The position numbers were made by a program, and so were the translations under genes. A stretch of DNA of 64,000 nucleotides from Clostridia bacterium (GTDB taxonomy: Bacteria; Bacillota; Clostridia; Oscillospirales; Butyricicoccaceae): positions 11,495 to 75,494 of the forward strand of contig JAJPXP010000049.1 of NCBI GenBank assembly GCA_021205365.1, read 5' to 3'. A model generated the notes under the pieces. The model did not search any database, was not told the DNA's origin, and saw only the letters and a list, made by a program, of their open reading frames with translations. This document shows positions 1 to 10,852 of this stretch, in pieces. How positions within the stretch are numbered: the first letter of the stretch is position 1; each line of letters opens with the position of its first letter.

Positions 1-1266
1 GATGTATCCTATTATGTTGCGGAAGACTCCCCACTGGACAAAGAAGCATACCGCCGCGGCACTTCTGTGTATTATGCCGATCAGGTTATCCCGATGCTGC
101 CGCTGACCCTGTCCAATGGCATCTGCTCACTGAATCCAGGCGTCAACCGCCTTGCTTTTTCTGTTTTTGTCGAGCTTGGAAAGGATGGCTCACGATATTC
201 TGTCGATTTTCACCGCTCCGTCATCTGCTCCTATGCCCGCCTGACCTATAACCAGGTAAACAAAATTCTTTCCGGCGACTGGCAGGAACGGCATCTCCGC
301 CAAGACCTTGCCCCTATCCTGGATGAAATGAATGCCATGGCAAAGGAGCTGCACGCAAACCGTATGCGCCGCGGCGCACTGGAATTAAACATCCCTGAAG
401 CCGTCATCCTCTGTGACCGCAACGGCAAAGCATCCGGTGTGGCAAAGCGCAGCCGCGGTGACGCAGAGTCCCTCATCGAAGAATTTATGCTGGTTGCCAA
501 TGAAGCAGTAGCAGAAGCATTGTACCGCTATCAGATGCCGGCGGTTTACCGTGTCCATGAAGACCCGGATCTGGAAAAGCTCCGTACCTTTGCTACACAG
601 GCGCGCCTGTTTGGCTATCGCCTGCGGGAAAAAGATCTGACGGACACCCATCAGCTGCAGAACGTCCTCGACCATGCCGCAGCTGATCCAGAACAGCAGG
701 CGCTTCCGACTCTGCTGCTCCGTTCCCTTGCACGTGCACGCTATTCACCGAGCTGCACAGGGCATTACGGCCTGGCTGCAAAATATTATCTGCACTTCAC
801 ATCCCCTATCCGCCGGTATCCTGACCTTGTTGTGCACCGTATGCTGACCCGTATGCTTGCCGGCGAACAGAGTTCAAAAAAGCTGACTGAATTTTGTGAA
901 GAAGCATCCCTGCAGTCCACAGACCGCGAACAGGCTGCCGCAGAAGCAGAACGCGATATCGAAAAGCTGTACATGGCAGAATATATGTCCAGCTTCATTG
1001 GACACACCTTTGACGGCTATATTTCCAGCATTACCAGCTTCGGTGTATATGTCCAGCTTGACAATATGGTGGAGGGCATGGTTCGTCTGGATACCATGCA
1101 GAACGACTGGTTTGAATTTGATCCGGACAGAATGACGTTGTTCGGCAAACATACCGGCCAAAACTACCATCTTGGCATGCGTGTCAATGTTACGCTGGTC
1201 AATGCATCCAGTACCTCCGGTCTGATTGACTTCATCTTCACACCAGATGAGCATTCCGTCGGCTGA
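1..1266 (+). CDS. rnr: Ribonuclease R, C-terminal part (5' end outside window)
   Basis: The frame of ORF 67..1266 stays open back to base 1 (DVSYYVAEDSPLDKEAYRRGTSVYYADQ). RNB-type segment HYGLAAKYYLHFTSPIRRYPDLVVHR, then a C-terminal S1 fold (GYISSITSFGVYVQLDNMVEGMVRL). Confidence 0.85.
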   Translation, partial: DVSYYVAEDSPLDKEAYRRGTSVYYADQVIPMLPLTLSNGICSLNPGVNRLAFSVFVELGKDGSRYSVDFHRSVICSYARLTYNQVNKILSGDWQERHLRQDLAPILDEMNAMAKELHANRMRRGALELNIPEAVILCDRNGKASGVAKRSRGDAESLIEEFMLVANEAVAEALYRYQMPAVYRVHEDPDLEKLRTFATQARLFGYRLREKDLTDTHQLQNVLDHAAADPEQQALPTLLLRSLARARYSPSCTGHYGLAAKYYLHFTSPIRRYPDLVVHRMLTRMLAGEQSSKKLTEFCEEASLQSTDREQAAAEAERDIEKLYMAEYMSSFIGHTFDGYISSITSFGVYVQLDNMVEGMVRLDTMQNDWFEFDPDRMTLFGKHTGQNYHLGMRVNVTLVNASSTSGLIDFIFTPDEHSVG

Positions 1267-1282
1267 TTTCTCCCCCAATAGC

Positions 1283-1323
1283 AACAGCGCCCACCTTTTC
1301 AAAAGGGAGCGCTGTTTTTTTGT
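1283..1323. terminator. Intrinsic terminator between convergent rnr and LCP genes
   Basis: Hairpin AACAGCGCCC..GGGAGCGCTGTT followed by a T8 run. Confidence 0.6.
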
Positions 1324-2549
1324 TATCCGGCATCGTCCTCTGTCGGATCAATATCATAGAAAATATAATTGCGCAGGTGAGTTGCCAATACGTCATCGCT
1401 GAACTCAATGACAGACATGCCATCGCGGGTTCCATATTGCCATTCATTATCCAGCGGAAGCCGCAGGTGTTCCATAGACGGGAATCCATGGACAATCGTC
1501 CGCAGTCCCATATAGACGAAGTCTGTTTTGCTCATAGAGGATGTGATGTTCGGCATCAGGCCATGCAGGAACCGCAGCAGCCGGATTGGATTGCTGGTCG
1601 CCTTGGAAAATACCTGATTGAGCACCACAGACTGGCGTTCGGTACGCTGCCAATCGCCGCCAGTATCCCCCTTTCGGATTCGTCCATAGGTCATAGCCTG
1701 GATACCGTCCAGCTTCTGTTCTCCTGCCGCCTCAATGCGGTGCGTCGACATGTTATTGCTCCAGCAATATTCATCAATATACTTATTGGTTTCCGCCAGC
1801 TCTTCCTCAGTCAATGTGACGGTAACACCGCCGACTGCATCGATAATGGATGCCATCTGCGCGAAGTCTACCACCATATACTCCGTAATATTCATATCAA
1901 AATTTTCATTGATGGTTTCCATCATCAGCTGCGGCCCGCCATAGCTGTAGGCATGGCAAATCTTTGTCTTGCCGTAGCCCGGCACCTCCACATAGCTGTC
2001 ACGCATCAGAGAAATCAGCTTGACGGATTTGTTTGCCGGATTTACACTCATAATCATGATAGCATCCGAACGTGTGCCGCTTTCGCCATTATTCGCACGG
2101 GTATCCACACCGAACAGAGCAATATTCATCACACCTTGTTCCGTATGGAATACAAGGCTGCTTTCGTTCGTATCATCATATTCATACAGCGTCAGCAGAT
2201 AGCAGGTATCTGCTACCAGCAATGCGAAAATCAGTACCACAGCGATCAGGATTTTCTTCAGCAACGGTATCCGGCGCTTCCGGCCCTTCCTGCGTTTTCT
2301 GCTGTTTCGATTCTTTCCGATGCCGCCTATGCCCCTGCTGGGGCCAGAACTGCGTGCGCTTCCGGATGCTTTTCTCTCCGGTGTCGGAGCACGGTGCTGC
2401 GCCGTCTCTCGGGATGCCTGATTGTCTGCATATCCATCCCGGCTTTCCTCTTCGTAGGTCCTGCCGGTCTTGGGATTGATCGCACGTCCATACTCGTCCA
2501 CAGGCTGGCCATATTCATCGTAATACTTGAATTTTTTCTTTTTATCCAC
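1323..2549 (-). CDS. LytR/CpsA/Psr (LCP) family cell-envelope phosphotransferase
   Basis: N-terminal basic tail plus one TM segment. LCP core motifs are present: LFGVDTR..RSDAIMIMSVNP..KLISLMRDSYVEVPGYG..KICHAYSYGGPQLMMETINENF. GTG start preceded by GGAAAGGAAG. Confidence 0.85.
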   Translation of the reverse strand: MDKKKKFKYYDEYGQPVDEYGRAINPKTGRTYEEESRDGYADNQASRETAQHRAPTPERKASGSARSSGPSRGIGGIGKNRNSRKRRKGRKRRIPLLKKILIAVVLIFALLVADTCYLLTLYEYDDTNESSLVFHTEQGVMNIALFGVDTRANNGESGTRSDAIMIMSVNPANKSVKLISLMRDSYVEVPGYGKTKICHAYSYGGPQLMMETINENFDMNITEYMVVDFAQMASIIDAVGGVTVTLTEEELAETNKYIDEYCWSNNMSTHRIEAAGEQKLDGIQAMTYGRIRKGDTGGDWQRTERQSVVLNQVFSKATSNPIRLLRFLHGLMPNITSSMSKTDFVYMGLRTIVHGFPSMEHLRLPLDNEWQYGTRDGMSVIEFSDDVLATHLRNYIFYDIDPTEDDAG

Positions 2550-2768
2550 AGGTGAACTTCCTTTCCCCTGTTATGGTTTTGTTATTTCAGTACCTATGAT
2601 ACACGCCTTAGCCACTAGATGCAACCTCACCTACGCGAAATTTCTATAAAAATTCACAATTCCTTTCCATTTGCTCGAAACATGTCCTATTGTAATCATG
2701 CCTCAAATACCGTATAATAAATATATATTTCCTGTGGATATGACAGGAACACAAGGGAGGATATTACT

Positions 2769-3668
2769 ATGGCAAATCCGGTACTTGTCGTTATGGCCGC
2801 CGGTATGGGCTCCCGCTACGGCGGTTTGAAGCAAATCGACCCGGTTGGCCCAAATGGCCAGATTATTATGAACTATTCCATTTACGACGCATGGAAGGCA
2901 GGCTTCCGCCGCGTTGTATTCATCATAAAGGAAGAGCTTCTGGATGCATTCCGTGAGCGCATCGGCATCGCTGCAGAAAAACTCATGCAGGTAGATTACG
3001 TATTCCAGAGCCTGGACCGGCTGCCGGAAGGCTGCTCCGTGCAGGCAGACCGTACCAAGCCGCTGGGCACCGGACACGCTGTTTACTGTATACGCGGCGT
3101 CGTAGATGAGCCGTTTGCTGTCATCAATGCGGATGATTTCTATGGTTCCGAGGCATTCCAGTGCATGTATGACTATTTAAAGGATGCACAGGATGACGAA
3201 ACATATCGTTACTGCATGATCGGCTACCGTGTGGAAAATACCCTCACAGAAAATGGCACTGTTTCCCGCGGGATCTGTGAAGCAGACGAAAACGGCTATC
3301 TGACTGACATCGTGGAACGTACTGCGATTTCCCGCAATGCGGCTGGTGTGATTTCCGATCCGGAAGCCGGTGAAATCGCGGAAGGTACGCTGGTTTCCAT
3401 GAACATGTGGGGCTTTACGCCATCCTTCCTCCATGAACTGGATGCAGGTTTGACCGACTTCCTGCAGAATGAACTGCCCAAGAACCCGCTGAAGGGAGAA
3501 TATTATCTGCCGTTTGCGGTTGACCACCTGATTCAGGACGGACGCGCAACGGCAAAGGTGCTGCAAACCTCTGCACAGTGGTATGGTGTTACCTACCAAG
3601 AGGACAAGCCGATTGTCGTAAAGGCACTGCGCCGCATGACCGAAGACGGCATTTACCCTGCTGAATAA
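2769..3668 (+). CDS. Sugar-phosphate nucleotidyltransferase family protein
   Basis: N-terminal nucleotide-binding signature VVMAAGMGSRYGGLKQ. SD GGGAGGA lies 7 nt upstream of the ATG. Confidence 0.7.
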   Translation: MANPVLVVMAAGMGSRYGGLKQIDPVGPNGQIIMNYSIYDAWKAGFRRVVFIIKEELLDAFRERIGIAAEKLMQVDYVFQSLDRLPEGCSVQADRTKPLGTGHAVYCIRGVVDEPFAVINADDFYGSEAFQCMYDYLKDAQDDETYRYCMIGYRVENTLTENGTVSRGICEADENGYLTDIVERTAISRNAAGVISDPEAGEIAEGTLVSMNMWGFTPSFLHELDAGLTDFLQNELPKNPLKGEYYLPFAVDHLIQDGRATAKVLQTSAQWYGVTYQEDKPIVVKALRRMTEDGIYPAE

Positions 3669-5176: not shown

Positions 5177-5686
5177 TATGCTTGTATCATTTTGTTCTTT
5201 CTGTTGCTGCGCAAGCTGCTTTTCCAGCCTGCGTTTTTTCCGCAGTTCACGGAAAAACGCAGTCAAAATGCCGGAGCATGCCTCTTTCATCAGGCCGCGT
5301 ACAACCTCCGGTTTGTGGTTATACGCTACATCGAACAAATTAATGAGGCTTCCACAAGAGCCTGCTTTCAGATCGTCTGCACCATAATACACCGTTCGAA
5401 TCCGTGCATTGATAATCGCACCGGCGCACATCGGGCACGGCTCCAGCGTCACATACAAATCACAGCGGTGTAATCTCCAGCCACCAAGCTTTTTGCAGGC
5501 CTTCCCAATCGCTTCGATTTCTGCATGGGACAGGGCAGTTTTTTTTGTTTCCCGGCGATTGCGTCCACGCCCCACAATCTTTCCGTCACAGACAACTACA
5601 CAGCCTACGGGCACCTCTCCCTCTTCAGCAGATTTTTGTGCCAGCCGCAGGGCCTCCTTCATAAATTTTTCCTGTTCTGTCACCAT
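5174..5686 (-). CDS. tadA: tRNA-specific adenosine deaminase
   Basis: CDA zinc motifs HAEIEAI and TLEPCPMCAGAI. Start chosen at MVTEQEKFMKEALRLA; the longer ORF to 5842 would run through the upstream gene. Confidence 0.85.
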   Translation of the reverse strand: MVTEQEKFMKEALRLAQKSAEEGEVPVGCVVVCDGKIVGRGRNRRETKKTALSHAEIEAIGKACKKLGGWRLHRCDLYVTLEPCPMCAGAIINARIRTVYYGADDLKAGSCGSLINLFDVAYNHKPEVVRGLMKEACSGILTAFFRELRKKRRLEKQLAQQQKEQNDTSI

Positions 5687-6636
5687 GAGATATGCAAGAC
5701 CTCCAGATTTCCTGATGTAAAATAGATAGACAGAATCAAAACCAGTAACGCAGGAATACTCGTTAATACCGCAAATACGATTTGTCCTGCAGGCAATGCT
5801 GCCGGTCTGCCAAACAATCCCTGCCAGATTTCCTTCAGGCATCCTCTGCGGATGAACAGCACGATACCGATTGCACCCAGCAAGACTTCCAGCAGATAAA
5901 TGATAACTGACAATCCCGCGCCGATCATATCTCCTCCTGCCACATAACCGACATTAATGATCATATATACCGAATTAACGGCAAAATGTGCGCACATGGA
6001 TGGCAAAAGGGAGCCGTATCTTTTTCGAATATAGCCGCCAATGACACCAAACCCAACTGCAAGCGGTAAAATCTCAATGCTGTAGTGTGCCAGCCAAAAG
6101 CCGATTGCCGTCAGGCTGATGGCTGCCCATGTCCCCATGGAACGCTCGGCTGTTTTCAGATAAAAACCGCGGAAGCACAGTTCTTCCACAATCGGCGGAA
6201 CGATTGCCGTGGAAAAGAATTGTACCGCCAGCGCTGCCATGCCCGAAGGCAGCACATATTCCTCTGCAGTTTCCGTCATCCCAAACAGGTTCAAAATCCC
6301 TTCTATTCCCGCACCGAGAAAGCCTGCTGTCAAAGACCATCCCAATACAAGGCCAATGGTCATCAAATACACCTCTGCAGGCGGCTTCTCCTCGCCGACT
6401 AAGTCCCGCGCTGACATACCGGAAAGCTTTGCCCCAATGGAAAACGGAATGGTAAAGACAATGACATATAAAACCAGCTTCAGCAGCTCATACCAAATGG
6501 TCCCCTCTGCAAAATCTGGCAGCAATTGTACCAGCGGATACAGCAGATAATTGATGCCAAGGCTTGCCAGAGTTGTTAATCCTATGATATCCGCACTGCG
6601 GCGTATCTGCCGCCGGACGGTTCGTTCCCAGTTCAT
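5680..6636 (-). CDS. CPBP (CAAX/Abi) family intramembrane metalloprotease
   Basis: Polytopic membrane protein with EELCFRGF and HFAVN motifs. ATG at 6636 is preceded by AAGGAGGG. Confidence 0.8.
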   Translation of the reverse strand: MNWERTVRRQIRRSADIIGLTTLASLGINYLLYPLVQLLPDFAEGTIWYELLKLVLYVIVFTIPFSIGAKLSGMSARDLVGEEKPPAEVYLMTIGLVLGWSLTAGFLGAGIEGILNLFGMTETAEEYVLPSGMAALAVQFFSTAIVPPIVEELCFRGFYLKTAERSMGTWAAISLTAIGFWLAHYSIEILPLAVGFGVIGGYIRKRYGSLLPSMCAHFAVNSVYMIINVGYVAGGDMIGAGLSVIIYLLEVLLGAIGIVLFIRRGCLKEIWQGLFGRPAALPAGQIVFAVLTSIPALLVLILSIYFTSGNLEVLHISW

Positions 6637-6809
6637 CACTGTCCCTCCTTCATTCGTCTTTCCATCATACCACAGTAGCAGCACCCTGTCATGTTTTTTC
6701 CAAAAAATGTGACAACAAAATGCGTAAAAAAGCGGCATCCCGCCTGACAGTATCTGTCAGGTATTGGAATGCCGCCCTTTGATTTGGGATGGTTTTATTT
6801 TATTCTCAA

Positions 6810-6926
6810 TTAATTCTTATTCTGCTCTTCCCAATGCTCCCGGCGAATGCGCTCTCCGAGACGCTCATGAGAAAGCCCTACGCGTCTTGCCTGGACAAGT
6901 CCGCTGAAGAAACCTCTGCTTTTCAT
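6810..6926 (-). CDS. Small ORF P1 (38 aa) MKSRGFFSGLVQARRVGLSHERLGERIRREHWEEQNKN
   Basis: AAGGAGG lies 8 nt upstream of the ATG. Shares the FF-x2-LV-x9-H/N-ER-L/V spacing with P3-P5. A terminator follows at about 6740-6790. Confidence 0.45.
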   Translation of the reverse strand: MKSRGFFSGLVQARRVGLSHERLGERIRREHWEEQNKN

Positions 6927-7086
6927 GCTGATAATCCTCCTTCCGAATGACTGCAGACCCTTTTGCTCCCCAGATCATCTGAGAGTATAGACGAACTAAC
7001 GCCAGCCTGCTATTGCGGTCATTCGTGTTGTTTTATCATTAAGGATTCCACTTCTTGCTACCAATCATACGCAAGAGTAAACTTTT

Positions 7087-7173
7087 TTAGTGTCTGTTAC
7101 GTGCAGTACCCTGAAATCTCTGCTTCTCCCAGTCTCTAACCATCTTTGCTCTCTGGCTATAATACTCAAACAT
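7087..7173 (-). CDS. Small ORF P2 (28 aa) MFEYYSQRAKMVRDWEKQRFQGTARNRH
   Basis: GAGGAGGTG lies 6 nt upstream of the ATG. The N-terminus MF-x-Y-x-SQ matches P3. Confidence 0.45.
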   Translation of the reverse strand: MFEYYSQRAKMVRDWEKQRFQGTARNRH

Positions 7174-7210
7174 TACATTCACCTCCTCGTTGGTATTTTT
7201 ATCCATCGGT

Positions 7211-7315
7211 TTATTTTTCAGATTCATATCTCGGACGATGCATTTCGAAAGCAACCCTCTCCTGACGAAGCTGTTGCTCACGTGCCTTTATAAGCTGGCT
7301 CATATAACCGAACAT
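7211..7315 (-). CDS. Small ORF P3 (34 aa) MFGYMSQLIKAREQQLRQERVAFEMHRPRYESEK
   Basis: AAGGAGTG upstream. Aligns without gaps to P4/P5 over residues 1-21 (M1 F2 L8 R17 E19 R20 V21 identical). Confidence 0.5.
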   Translation of the reverse strand: MFGYMSQLIKAREQQLRQERVAFEMHRPRYESEK

Positions 7316-7350
7316 TCCGCTTCACTCCTTCTTCATAAACCAAAAGGATA

Positions 7351-7458
7351 TTACTTCTTGTTCTGCATCTTTGCACATGCATTGACGCGGCTGCTTACTC
7401 TTTCATTACGCATTGCACGCATCTGCACTTCTACCAGTTCATCAAAAAACTGAAACAT
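7351..7458 (-). CDS. Small ORF P4 (35 aa) MFQFFDELVEVQMRAMRNERVSSRVNACAKMQNKK
   Basis: TAAGGAGGAG lies 7 nt upstream. Near-duplicate of P5. Confidence 0.55.
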   Translation of the reverse strand: MFQFFDELVEVQMRAMRNERVSSRVNACAKMQNKK

Positions 7459-7611
7459 TGCATACTCCTCCTTAGAATCATTTCCAAATAAACATTATCT
7501 TCTTGTTTATTACTTGTGCTTCTTTGCACATGCATTGACGCGGTCGCTTACTCTTTCATTACGCATCGCATGCATCTGTACTTCTACCAGTTCATCAAAA
7601 AACCGAAACAT
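7370..7611 (-). repeat. Tandem duplication (period about 153 bp) carrying P4 and P5
   Basis: 7370-7458 and 7523-7611 differ by 6 substitutions over the first 30 codons (2 synonymous codons, 3 amino-acid changes). The 3' tails differ by an indel. Confidence 0.85.
7510..7611 (-). CDS. Small ORF P5 (33 aa) MFRFFDELVEVQMHAMRNERVSDRVNACAKKHK
   Basis: GGAGGTG lies 8 nt upstream. The 69-aa ORF in the track (7510..7719) is this ORF with an unsupported TTG extension. Confidence 0.55.
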   Translation of the reverse strand: MFRFFDELVEVQMHAMRNERVSDRVNACAKKHK

Positions 7612-7900
7612 GATAGATTCACCTCCAAAAAATTCACGAAGCTGTTTTTTTAGAATTATTGTCTGCAGTCGTTTTCCCCTGCACAATATTCTACGTTTCT
7701 GCTTTCGGCTAGGTTCCAAAGCCCGGAGCTTTCCAGTTTCTTTGGAACGGTTTCATACGACTTTGCCGTATGCTGCTTCCGGACTTCCGTCCTTCAGCTT
7801 GGCTATATCATACACATTTTCCCTCCAGCATGCAACATCCAAACTATATAAATATTGTATAAATTTTTCTGAAACCATTTGTGCATGTTCCATAATTTAA
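7612..7900 (-). promoter_or_regulatory. Long AT-rich promoter region plus hairpin-rich 5' leader of the small-ORF array
   Basis: About 290 nt between the mscS terminator and P5. Minus-strand hairpins: GGAC-GGAA-GTCC (7781-7792), CATACG-gcaaagt-CGTATG (7754-7772) and GTTCCAAAG-18 nt-CTTTGGAAC (7712-7749). No known riboswitch consensus recognised. Confidence 0.3.
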
Positions 7901-8011
7901 CTATTTTCCGTTATTTAATTCACACAATTCATTTTTACATTTTTTGTGCGTTTTCAACATCAATTTTTCATTTGTATTTTTATAATAAAAATCATATATT
8001 CCTCGAAAAAA

Positions 8012-8052
8012 CGGCAAAAAAAGCCTGCTCAGGAGGTATCCAAAGCAGGTTT
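8012..8052 (-). terminator. Intrinsic terminator after the MscS gene
   Basis: Minus strand reads AACCTGCT-loop-AGCAGGC followed by TTTTTTT. Confidence 0.7.
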
Positions 8053-8066
8053 TTATGGAAAAATCC

Positions 8067-9011
8067 TTATTTTGTAACGGTAACGTGCGGGTACGCAAAT
8101 TCAATGCCTTCAGCGTCAAACCGGTTTTTCACTGAGCGGTTGAGCGCAAATTTCAATGCCGAAGCGCTTGCCTGGTCTTCTGCCCATAACCATGCACGGA
8201 TGACAACCGCAGAATCTGCAAGTTCGACCACTTCAACCTTCACTTCCGGCTCTTTTGCGACGTTTTCCGGCGTGCGGACATCCACATGCAGCGGCTGCTT
8301 CATCACCTCATCGCGCAGGATCTCAATCGCCTTTTCCATGTCACTTTCATATGTAATGCCCACGTTAAAAAATTCACAGATCCGTTTATCCCCGTAGTTC
8401 GCATTTTCCAAAACACCCCCGTTTATGGTGCCATTGGGAATGATGATGCGCTTATTTTCCGGGGTCCGGATGACAGTGTGCCGCAAGGTGATCTCTTCAA
8501 TGGTGCCGGTTACATCCGTATACCGCACAAAGTCACCGATGACAAACGGCTTGAAAAATAAAATCATCACGCCGCCAGCCACATTGCCCAACGTATCCTG
8601 TGCTGCAAAGCCGACAATCACTGCAACAATGCCACCGGATGCCAATACCGCGGTCAGGGAATCCGATGCTCCCGGGATACTAGAAACAATAACAACGCCA
8701 CCGATAAAATAGATCCCCGTCAGCACAACATACCGTATAAAGGAAATCAGGGTCACACTGGTATTCCCTACCGCTGACATGGTATCAATTGTATGCCGGA
8801 ACGCCTTATTGACAAGCTTAACCGCTATCAGTACAACAACAATGGCAATGATGATGAATACAAGCCGTCCAAACCAGGTTGGAAGATGAAAAAAGCTGGT
8901 GACTGTCTGCACACTCTCAATGGCAGAATTTGTCGCATCATTGGTGACCTCCACCGCATCATCTGTCGTCATAATGCCGGAGCCTTCCAACTTGAATGCC
9001 CGTAAGAGCAT
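8067..9011 (-). CDS. Small-conductance mechanosensitive channel (MscS family)
   Basis: Three TM helices, then the MscS beta-domain signature GNVAGGVMILFFKPFVIGDFVRY..GTIEEITLRHTVIRTPENKRIIIPNG. Confidence 0.85.
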   Translation of the reverse strand: MLLRAFKLEGSGIMTTDDAVEVTNDATNSAIESVQTVTSFFHLPTWFGRLVFIIIAIVVVLIAVKLVNKAFRHTIDTMSAVGNTSVTLISFIRYVVLTGIYFIGGVVIVSSIPGASDSLTAVLASGGIVAVIVGFAAQDTLGNVAGGVMILFFKPFVIGDFVRYTDVTGTIEEITLRHTVIRTPENKRIIIPNGTINGGVLENANYGDKRICEFFNVGITYESDMEKAIEILRDEVMKQPLHVDVRTPENVAKEPEVKVEVVELADSAVVIRAWLWAEDQASASALKFALNRSVKNRFDAEGIEFAYPHVTVTK

Positions 9012-9080
9012 GAAAATAACACTCCCTTTCTACATACAAAATATTCCCAGCTGCGCCGAATATACCGCTTTGCAGCTAGG

Positions 9081-9118
9081 AAAAAGCACGCTGTAAGCAT
9101 CTAACCCCACAGCGTGCC
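9081..9118 (-). terminator. Intrinsic terminator after proS
   Basis: Minus strand reads GCACGCTGT-loop-ACAGCGTGC followed by TTTTT. Confidence 0.7.
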
Positions 9119-9136
9119 CTAAAATCGGTTTTAAAA

Positions 9137-10852
9137 TTATCTGAACTCAGCCAGCATGTCCTGAACCAGCTTCTCCACAAAGGCAGCTGCTTCTGCCGGT
9201 ACAACATCCTCACGCATGGACTTATCGCGCTTGGATACCTCAACGGCACCACGCTTGACTGTCTTCGGGCTGACGATAACGCGAACCGGTACACCCAGCA
9301 GGTCAGCATCCGAGAACATATTGCCTGCGCTTACCTTGCGGTCATCATAGATTACCTCGACGCCTGCATCCTGCAGCTGCTTGTACAGCATATCAGCAGT
9401 CTCACGAACCTGCGGATCGGTTGCCTTGATCGCACAGATGTGTACCTGCCACGGAGCAATGGACATCGGCCAGACTGGGCCGTAATCGTCATGCTTCACC
9501 TCACACACAGAAGCGCACAGACGTCCAACACCAATGCCATAGCAGCCCATAATCGGATAATGCGGCTTGCCGTCCTGACCAATATAGGTCATTTCCATGG
9601 ACTTGGTATACTTGGTTCCTAACTGGAAGATATTACCTACCTCAATGCCGCGGCTGACACGGATATGCGGCTTGCCGCAAACCGGACAGATCGCACCCTC
9701 ATAGGTCTTTGCAAAATCAGCAACCCTGGCATCCGGGGTATCACGCTTGACATTATAGCCAGTGTAATGATAATTTTCTTCATTTGCGCCGCAGACAGAG
9801 CTGGTCAATGCAGCCAGAGACTGGTCAATGACATATTCTACCCCTTCCGGCAGGCCAACCGGGCCGATAAATCCGGCAACAATACCGCTTTCCAGTGTGA
9901 TTTCAGCCGGATGGATTTCCTCGCCGAGGAAATTGCGCAGCTTGGTTTCATTGACTTCCAGATCACCACGGATAAAGGCCACTACGTATTCATCCGTCAT
10001 GTTCTTCTGGTAAACAACTGCCTTACAGGAGGCATTTGCCGGAGCGTTCAGGTATTCGCACACTGCTTCAATCGTCTTCGTTTCCGGCGTATATACCTTT
10101 TCCAGCGGAGCTTCTGCGGTTTCCGGGGCTTCCACGATGCAGTCAGCTGCTTCCATGTTGGAGCGGTAGCCGCAGTCACACAGAACGATGGTATCCTCGC
10201 CGCAGTCCGTCAGCAGCATAAATTCATGCGATACACTGCCGCCCATCATGCCGGAGTCCGACTTGACGGCTACAACCTCCGGGATGCCTGCACGGCGGTA
10301 AATGTTTTCATATGCCTGATAGCACTCTTCATAGTATGCTTCCAAATCCTCCTGTGAGGTATGGAAGGAATAGGCATCCTTCATGGTAAATTCACGCACA
10401 CGAATCAGGCCGCCGCGGGCACGCGGTTCGTCACGGAACTTGGTCTGAATCTGGTAAATCATGAACGGATACTGGGAATAGGACTGTGCGGTGCCGCGGG
10501 CCAGATGAACAGCTGCTTCCTCATGGGTCATACCCAGAACAACCGGCTGGCCGCTTCTGTCCTTAAAACGAGCCATTTCACTGCCGATGGATTCATAACG
10601 GCCGGACTCCTGCCACAGGGATGCCGGCATAACAACCGGGAACATGACTTCCTGTCCATCAATCTTGTCCATTTCCTCACGGATAATATTTTCAATTTTC
10701 TTCATGATGCGCTTTGCCGGCATGTACAGAGAATAAATGCCCGTGGTCAGCTGCTTCATATAGCCGCCACGCACCATGAGCTTATGGCTGTCAAGCTGGC
10801 AATCCGCCGGAGTTTCCTTAAAGCGGGCGCCGAGCATACTGCTCATTTTCAT
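9137..10852 (-). CDS. proS: Proline--tRNA ligase
   Basis: 571 aa, bacterial-type ProRS with class II motifs, an inserted editing domain and a C-terminal anticodon-binding domain (VPVRVIVSPKTVKRGAVEV). Confidence 0.9.
   Translation of the reverse strand: MKMSSMLGARFKETPADCQLDSHKLMVRGGYMKQLTTGIYSLYMPAKRIMKKIENIIREEMDKIDGQEVMFPVVMPASLWQESGRYESIGSEMARFKDRSGQPVVLGMTHEEAAVHLARGTAQSYSQYPFMIYQIQTKFRDEPRARGGLIRVREFTMKDAYSFHTSQEDLEAYYEECYQAYENIYRRAGIPEVVAVKSDSGMMGGSVSHEFMLLTDCGEDTIVLCDCGYRSNMEAADCIVEAPETAEAPLEKVYTPETKTIEAVCEYLNAPANASCKAVVYQKNMTDEYVVAFIRGDLEVNETKLRNFLGEEIHPAEITLESGIVAGFIGPVGLPEGVEYVIDQSLAALTSSVCGANEENYHYTGYNVKRDTPDARVADFAKTYEGAICPVCGKPHIRVSRGIEVGNIFQLGTKYTKSMEMTYIGQDGKPHYPIMGCYGIGVGRLCASVCEVKHDDYGPVWPMSIAPWQVHICAIKATDPQVRETADMLYKQLQDAGVEVIYDDRKVSAGNMFSDADLLGVPVRVIVSPKTVKRGAVEVSKRDKSMREDVVPAEAAAFVEKLVQDMLAEFR

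Follow-up and report, generated by a model that had tools for sequence, protein, structure and literature searches.

A tandem array of very small genes in uncultured Clostridia with the features of a previously undescribed family of helical proteins

Proteins shorter than 50 amino acids are routinely missed by annotation and few of them have a demonstrated role. Amongst the closest described systems the PSM-alpha operon of Staphylococcus (psm-alpha 1-4, for phenol-soluble modulins, PSMs) consists of tandem genes of 20-30 amino acids without signal peptides, each with its own ribosome-binding site, that encode single helices and are paralogues born by duplication; the leaderless class II bacteriocins such as aureocin A70 and enterocin L50, for which immunity is provided by an Abi/CPBP protein, are again tandem, small, leaderless and cationic peptides with the CPBP-family protein adjoining. 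The locus described here resembles both in form, and is an array of five small open reading frames (ORFs), P5 to P1, on the minus strand at positions 6810-7611 of a 64,000-nucleotide (nt) stretch of a Clostridia bacterium of the Butyricicoccaceae (contig JAJPXP010000049.1 of assembly GCA_021205365.1, positions 11,495 to 75,494), the whole of which is referred to as the window. To judge from their conservation, four of the five (P5, P4, P3 and P1) and their relatives in other genomes are a protein-coding family under purifying selection, and we regard it as almost certain that this is a real, translated family with an operon of its own.

The window alone could not decide family status and the flanking genes were used for finding relatives: related loci (given here as L numbers) were found via orthologues of the adjoining CPBP gene (51-75% identity) traced to their contigs, with three metagenome-assembled genomes (MAGs) coming from a species-representative genome set. 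At least ten lineages have the same ProRS-MscS-[array]-CPBP-TadA locus, an order that is kept in L003-L024 and in most of L026-L037, with an array gap of 1.1-1.7 kb that holds from 2 to 7 or more small homologous genes on the same strand, some of them already called by public gene callers. It is this conservation in other genomes, and not the window by itself, that places the array beyond chance. Members taken from the syntenic loci that were found first could be aligned with no gaps, and 65 unique sequences assembled later conform to that frame, again with no gap, under the consensus M1-F2-x-[F/W/Y]4-F5-x-x-L8-[V/T/A]9-x-A11-R12-x-x-x-L16-x-x-E19-[K/R]20-[I/V/L]21-x4-R26, followed by a tail that is basic and often ends in His. 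A hidden Markov model (HMM) of the family gives member ORFs 38-60 bits, only on the coding strand and only at the syntenic position, and of the whole 64-kb window it matches just P5, P4, P3 and P1, the opposite strand and the remaining frames giving no hit. Every family copy has a Shine-Dalgarno (SD) sequence 6-11 nt upstream.

The pattern of substitution carries the argument further. In Nei-Gojobori comparisons of orthologous and paralogous pairs the proportion of synonymous differences (pS) is 0.53-0.95, at or near saturation, with a proportion of replacement differences (pN) of only 0.16-0.30 and an omega of ~0.05-0.35 where computable; Fisher tests on six independent pairs give an excess of synonymous change at p values of 1.6e-3 to 4.9e-8. 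Thus P3 and its orthologue in L003 differ with a pS of 0.95 and a pN of 0.23 (Fisher p = 7e-8), the orthologue comparison for P1 (present in L003, L006, L008, L015, L016, L018, L019 and L020) gives a pS of 0.76 against a pN of 0.18 (p = 5e-8), and the recent duplicates A1 and A2 of L012 are separated by six synonymous changes and one replacement. Saturation is thus confined to the synonymous sites, which marks the family ORFs as protein-coding. The initial annotation of this DNA, made from its letters alone, had proposed a real but unrecognised protein family as opposed to chance ORFs together with an HMM search for relatives; homologous small ORFs with conserved frames are indeed present in related genomes, and the syntenic arrays, the gap-free alignment, the SD sequences and the synonymous excess all support the proposal.

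Within the family three subtypes can be told apart and their order is fixed, with the A copies first, the B copies next and a single C at the end. Type A (MFQWFDAMAKARMMQL.NEKI...) is present in one to five or more copies, type B (MFGYM.QLVKAREQQL.QEK...) in none to three, and type C (MKGRGFF.GLVQARRVGLSHERL...) in at most one, which is always last and has a two-residue N-terminal extension. A scan of the window recovers the five minus-strand ORFs of the initial annotation, each with an ATG start, 28-38 codons and a strong SD (GGAGGTG, TAAGGAGGAG, AAGGAGTG, GAGGAGGTG and AAGGAGG) 6-9 nt before it. P5 (7510-7611; 33 amino acids, MFRFFDELVEVQMHAMRNERVSDRVNACAKKHK) is the first gene of the operon, with its SD GGAGGTG lying 8 nt upstream, and is also a gene call in two public assemblies. 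It is of type A, as is P4 (7351-7458; 35 amino acids, MFQFFDELVEVQMRAMRNERVSSRVNACAKMQNKK), and the suggestion that P4 is a recent tandem duplicate of P5 is upheld by a recount of 6 nt differences in the first 30 codons, with two codons altered silently and three altered to another amino acid; by itself this pair is uninformative on selection (p = 0.5). P3 (7211-7315; 34 amino acids, MFGYMSQLIKAREQQLRQERVAFEMHRPRYESEK, starting MFGYMSQLIKAREQQLRQERV) is of type B and P1 (6810-6926; 38 amino acids, MKSRGFFSGLVQARRVGLSHERLGERIRREHWEEQNKN, starting MKSRGFFSGLVQARRVGLSHERL) of type C; alignments put the N-terminal extension of P1 at two residues and not at the four originally given. The lower G+C content that had been noted for the array is also found, at 0.43 against 0.49-0.52 for the flanking genes.

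The fifth ORF, P2 (7087-7173; 28 amino acids, MFEYYSQRAKMVRDWEKQRFQGTARNRH), is of a different standing. All five had been described as paralogues and this is demonstrable for P5, P4, P3 and P1, which score 50.2, 48.3, 51.5 and 50.4 bits against the family HMM, but not for P2, which at -1.0 bits does no better than shuffled P2, and a HMM built from B types only gives it 2.8 bits, a score equalled by 75 of 2000 shuffles. In its first seven residues P2 keeps the MF.Y.SQ pattern, but the AR...L..EK motif of the centre is gone. At its end the codons CGT AAC AGA CAC TAA give the same ..ARNRH-stop C terminus (RNRH-stop) as the last B gene of its relatives, in the alignment its position, 3' end (CGTAACAGACACTAA) and downstream spacer match their B genes, and of the marks of a coding gene it has only the position and, with its strong SD, the ribosome-binding site. 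We read it as a diverging B-type copy, the probable positional orthologue of the last B gene, that may be decaying or changing function.

Copy number within the array varies through tandem duplication and differs even among close relatives, as in L012, whose four A copies are nearly identical, in L018, which has three of type B, and in L024, which has at least five A copies and also an assembly gap (a run of N at ~2958-3113). Many metagenome contigs end inside the array (contig ends in L026-L038), and because repeated mini-genes break or collapse assemblies the copy numbers taken from MAGs are lower bounds. A profile of the four window members searched against 1.84 billion representative proteins (E <= 1e-3) gave 12 matches, which were P5 and P1 of the window, about eight new genuine members, one fused miscall (P0065, a public protein of 156 amino acids for which a gene caller joined the leader and two mini-genes into one ORF) and one spurious repeat protein (P0060). 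A metagenome scan, for which the motif was taken from a six-member A-type subset as the full alignment of 26 sequences was too diverse for a pattern, found 15 loci, 12 of them in an MscS/CPBP/TadA context. Two loci, L039 (3256-3357) and L040 (4001-4096), have a single-copy member (MMKGFFNGLVSARMMELEGERV...) with its own promoter, SD and terminator that lies between molybdo-hydroxylase-like and dehydrogenase-like genes of a higher-GC organism, with no CPBP gene within 4 kb; the family therefore exists outside the MscS-CPBP locus.

As far as the sequences compared go, only a narrow clade of uncultured Clostridia has the family. ProRS identity is 82-92% within a tight array-bearing clade and then drops to 74% or less, and the single outgroup locus examined beyond that drop has neither the synteny nor a family member. 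The relatives carry the taxon labels 'Clostridia', 'Eubacteriales', 'Clostridiales bacterium' and once 'Butyricicoccus sp.', and collections of phage and plasmid sequences contain nothing similar to the family. One locus, L023, keeps the array promoter and the CPBP gene with no A, B or C genes and only a small ORF of another kind.

That other kind, which we call type D, is an unrelated Met-rich small protein of 40-45 amino acids (MKFFD..SMLLGMKMM.GG.VTRAEF.DM..H) that is interleaved in several arrays (L003 3404-3541; L006 3001-3129 and 3172-3303; L008 3342-3473; L023 3269-3391); the window lacks it, and neither Pfam nor NCBIfam has a match for it. Furthermore the arrays of one clade have as their first gene a divergent ORF of 24-31 amino acids (M.RSFNQMADAYVKELRKNKIDQAVIHMFGK; 3197-3271 in L012 and L013, ~2960-3040 in L021 and 2385-2480 in L024) with a weak family resemblance (HMM E = 0.4-1), which may be a remote family member. 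In L038 low-GC genes at 1-3400, encoding a LytTR-domain protein, an XRE regulator and a lipoprotein-like protein, replace ProRS and MscS upstream of a typical promoter and array, which would come from a rearrangement, an insertion or a chimeric assembly.

The peptides had been described as hydrophilic, basic and helical, and grand average of hydropathy (GRAVY) values of -0.4 to -1.65, net charges of +2 to +6 with 3-8 acidic residues, and an AlphaFold2 model of P4 as one continuous helix over residues 2-34 (pLDDT, the predicted local distance difference test, 90) agree with that description. The five peptides of the window lie at -0.6 to -1.65 and at +2 to +4 within these ranges. The peptides contain no hydrophobic (transmembrane) stretch. 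Amongst the 65 members the conserved residues fall on one face of the helix, at 280-100 degrees of the wheel, which mixes aromatic and aliphatic residues with the invariant charged R12, E19, K/R20 and R26; the N-terminal 21 residues are conserved and the last 8-15 are much more variable.

The family had also been called unrecognised and no curated library contradicts this. Neither the five window peptides nor ten relatives have a match at any cutoff in Pfam-A, NCBIfam, PADLOC or the sequences of the PDB. Hits to SR7P (14 bits where the cutoff is 45, E = 0.04), to DUF4041 and TIM (far below cutoffs) and, in a PDB profile search, to the 'ExxxxR' helix of a light-harvesting protein (E = 0.08 or worse) were taken as chance. 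The peptide strings were not found in the indexed main-text literature or in 11 supplement files of Sberro et al., with the large small-ORF catalogues lying beyond this sequence comparison, so that the family appears to be previously undescribed although a listing in one of those catalogues is possible.

The array would seem to be transcribed from its own promoter at 7807-7835 on the minus strand, identified by motif search and alignment of ten lineages, with a -35 TTGCAT (7835-7830), a 17-nt spacer and a -10 TATGAT (7812-7807). All lineages have TTGCA(T/C), the 17-nt spacer and a near-invariant GTATGATATAG(C/G)CA(A/T)GCT block containing the -10, and we infer from consensus matching only that the promoter is sigma-A-like; sporulation sigma-factor and Rex, CodY or cre readings of the region were compared by eye and none fitted better. 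Overlapping the promoter is a minus-strand ORF of 46 amino acids (7753-7893; MEHAQMVSEKF...NVYDIAKLKDG...) that is most likely not a gene, as it has no SD and its apparent amino acid similarity to an ORF of L008 falls where the DNA of the promoter and leader is invariant. Further upstream, the AT-rich gap after mscS (7879-7945, minus strand, G+C 0.29) contains a conserved block, TTGTGTGAATTAAATAACG(G/A)AAA, flanked by GCACAA boxes in most lineages, possibly as a second promoter or an operator. By eye the regions upstream of the promoters look alike in the array loci and at the L039 gene that stands alone, but shuffles gave the likeness no significance and it was rejected.

Between the inferred transcription start and P5 there is a structured 5' leader of ~190 nt (7612-7800, minus strand), which folds with a minimum free energy of -59 kcal/mol (z = -3.8, none of 200 shuffles as good). 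Its first hairpin (~7798-7775) is interrupted, GCU-GAA-GGAC...GUCC-GGA-AGC, and its second (~7772-7754) is CAUACG...CGUAUG. When the first 75 nt were folded separately for ten lineages (L003, L006, L008, L012, L015, L016, L018, L020, L024 and L033) the first hairpin (GCU/GAA/GGx-loop-xCC/GGA/AGC) opened the fold in every one, and nine of the ten predictions had a second hairpin of 5-8 bp in the corresponding place, that for L015 having its short AACAGU/ACUGUU stem displaced by a longer alternative pairing. The stems of the second hairpin are wholly different between clades (CAUACG/CGUAUG, GGCAUG/CAUGCC, AACAGU/ACUGUU, GAAUGC/GCAUUC and CAGAC/GUCUG); a covariance model from six near-identical leaders failed to align those of the divergent clades. 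Rfam 15 has no match at E <= 1 in 5500-9500, which takes in the leader, the spacer and the array, and nothing at gathering score (no tRNA, rRNA or riboswitch) across the 64-kb window. The leader is thus a candidate for a new cis-regulatory or mRNA-stabilising element.

A second structured segment is the conserved spacer before the C-type gene (6927-7086, minus strand), which in the alignments opens with a degenerate copy of the promoter and leader start (TATGAT at 7069-7064). Within it are a 7-bp stem formed over a long range and, at its end, a small UCC-GGAA-GGA hairpin overlapping the P1 SD; the fold has a z of -2.0 with limited covariation, and L015 lacks the spacer. These elements hint at an internal promoter and at a masking of the P1 SD from translation.

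The array ends in a terminator of its own, as had been claimed, a hairpin of -34 kcal/mol with a U-run (approximately 6722-6780, minus strand, z = -6.5) that a simple terminator scan missed because the loop is long; an equivalent hairpin and T-run follow the array in every related locus. Next comes the gene for a CPBP (Rce1-like) intramembrane protease (PF02517, E = 2e-17), which with its promoter spans 5680-6692 on the minus strand. A promoter scan places the latter at 6692-6664 (ATGACA-17-TATGAT with TG) and it is kept in all relatives as CATGACAG-N17-TGTGGTATGAT. The start of the gene is ATG 6636, which public gene calls use and an SD (GAAGGAGGG) backs; the ATG at 6738 of a mechanical ORF list (5680-6738) was rejected as that frame runs through both the CPBP promoter and the array terminator. 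Because every locus has a strong terminator after the C gene and then the conserved CPBP promoter, the array by these signals forms a transcription unit by itself, to which the CPBP gene does not belong.

What the proteins do is a matter on which we can be only tentative, and the reading we prefer is that they are intracellular binding proteins and not bacteriocins. It is favoured because the half-charged interface, the strong expression signals and the long-term vertical inheritance fit it better than they fit a lytic or secreted peptide. The proteins would stay in the cytoplasm and be made in large amounts, with gene copy number setting the dose, and the one conserved helical face (F4, F5, L8, A11, R12, L16, E19, K/R20, R26) would dock onto a partner, which might be another protein, each other in an A/B/C helical bundle, or nucleic acid via the basic tail. 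The three subtypes persist across the whole clade and are therefore argued to be non-redundant. A more specific version, which we consider a long shot, makes A, B and C non-redundant subunits of a hetero-oligomeric helical bundle whose synthesis is controlled, in a manner that could be autoregulatory, by a new cis-regulatory RNA composed of the two-hairpin leader and the GGAA hairpin masking the ribosome-binding site of the C gene; if true, the bundle would be a multi-helix protein encoded as separate genes of 30 amino acids.

Several points weigh against an intracellular binding role. Met1, the aromatic-rich residues 2-5 (MFxWF) and the basic tail fit a membrane-interface anchor or leaderless export equally well, a CPBP gene adjoins every multi-copy locus examined, and a narrow distribution with rapid change in copy number is also typical of genes of conflict or competition. 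In addition the hydrophobicity values for the comparators, PSMs and leaderless bacteriocins, are provisional, and the sigma-A-like class of the promoter is a matter of consensus matching.

It would seem unlikely that the array encodes leaderless exported peptides, that is multi-peptide bacteriocins or PSM-like agents with the CPBP/Abi protein as producer immunity or maturation factor. CPBP/Abi proteins are immunity factors in class II bacteriocin loci, and here a CPBP gene lies directly downstream in all array loci; the tandem small genes without signal peptides, the aromatic N terminus and cationic C terminus, and a flux in copy number with recent duplicates that resembles bacteriocin loci all point the same way. 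However, the peptides are strongly hydrophilic, with their 3-8 acidic residues and a net charge of only +2 to +6, whereas leaderless bacteriocins are Trp/Lys-rich and hydrophobic and those comparators, with the PSMs, have a provisional GRAVY of at least -0.1. PSMs are hydrophobic amphipaths (GRAVY provisionally above 0) that are exported by Pmt and controlled by Agr, and the array peptides, with their half-charged conserved face, have no sequence similarity to them. Neither in the window nor in more than 20 related loci is there an ABC (ATP-binding cassette) exporter, an enzyme for ribosomally synthesised and post-translationally modified peptides (RiPPs) or other modifying enzyme, or a peptide receptor within ~10 kb, whilst leaderless bacteriocin loci carry a dedicated ABC transporter. 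Those loci are also accessory or mobile, and the array is inherited vertically, under purifying selection, in syntenic housekeeping DNA where its neighbours are ClpC-like, ThrRS, ProRS, MscS, TadA, SecG and RNase R. The initial annotation had judged that the peptides are neither classical bacteriocins nor type I toxins, and that judgement is supported by their hydrophilicity, the absence of a hydrophobic stretch and the lack of an exporter within ~10 kb; a type I toxin has a hydrophobic transmembrane segment, and these peptides are modelled as one hydrophilic helix.

The same annotation had hinted at a functional link with the CPBP gene, and the comparison gives this no support. Although the CPBP gene adjoins all array loci, its transcription signals and those of the array are distinct and each set is conserved, the single-copy homologue of L039 has no CPBP gene within 4 kb, and L023 retains a CPBP gene having no A, B or C genes; these points also count against the exported-peptide reading. 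As the whole neighbourhood is syntenic housekeeping DNA the adjacency is little informative, and on our preferred reading of intracellular binding it would be conserved housekeeping synteny with no shared pathway.

Distinctly unlikely too are peripheral-membrane amphipathic helices that modulate MscS upstream or the CPBP protease downstream. The MFxWFxxL or GFFxGL N terminus recalls, by analogy, the membrane-targeting helices of MinD and Noc type, the basic tail could bind anionic lipid, and two membrane-protein genes flank the array in every array locus, but the conserved face is half charged (R12, E19, K20, R26) with a low mean hydrophobicity, neither neighbour appears to be co-transcribed with the array, and the stand-alone homologue sits beside genes for soluble enzymes. 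An abundant protective protein, either a hydrophilin-like osmotic or desiccation protectant near mscS or a Met-rich sacrificial antioxidant in an anaerobe, would account for the high hydrophilicity, the strong-looking expression signals and the multiple copies, and the A type and the co-resident D type are indeed Met-rich (3-7 Met in 30-43 amino acids); the B and C types are not, and a specific face conserved by position is unexpected of a bulk protectant, so we think it improbable.

Highly improbable are precursors of RiPPs or pheromones, with residues 1-21 as a conserved leader, a variable C-terminal core and the CPBP protein as leader peptidase. The N-terminal two-thirds are much more conserved than the last 8-15 residues and multiple precursor-like copies do lie beside a membrane protease, yet no locus has a modification enzyme (radical SAM, YcaO, LanM and similar), exporter or receptor, neither a cleavage motif nor a Cys/Ser/Thr pattern is conserved in the tails, which are simply basic and often end in His, and the CPBP gene by its signals is transcribed separately. 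Finally, that the ORFs arose by chance within a non-coding RNA or regulatory region, for which one might cite the structured RNA segments and the undemonstrable homology of P2, is effectively refuted by the comparisons, given frame-preserving conservation in at least ten lineages, the strong synonymous excess, an SD before each copy and structured segments that lie between the ORFs and not inside them.

On evolutionary evidence the array is a clean small-protein case, with three subtypes in a fixed order, conserved expression signals and a shifting copy number. It gives a defined starting point for work on the role of abundant single-helix proteins in gut anaerobes, and along with it a candidate new structured leader RNA. 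There is also a practical side, as the array fragments metagenome assemblies and gene callers miss its genes or fuse them into artificial ORFs.

Amongst characterised proteins the functional analogy we favour, if the proteins are indeed intracellular binders, is with the Firmicutes proteins Sda, MciZ and SR1P/SR7P, which are also of 30-50 amino acids, hydrophilic, helical and without an export signal, and which act by binding a larger partner. They differ in being single-copy with known partners, they have no sequence similarity to the array peptides, and we know of no multi-copy, three-subtype array for regulators of this type. In being conserved ORFs of fewer than 50 amino acids, present in gut-type metagenomes and missed by annotation, the members also resemble the catalogued families of uncharacterised small proteins (Sberro et al. 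bioRxiv 10.1101/494179; GMSC, PMC11364881; sORFdb, PMC11796252). Tandem small-protein operons are known as a kind, and this one appears to be built from a new family.

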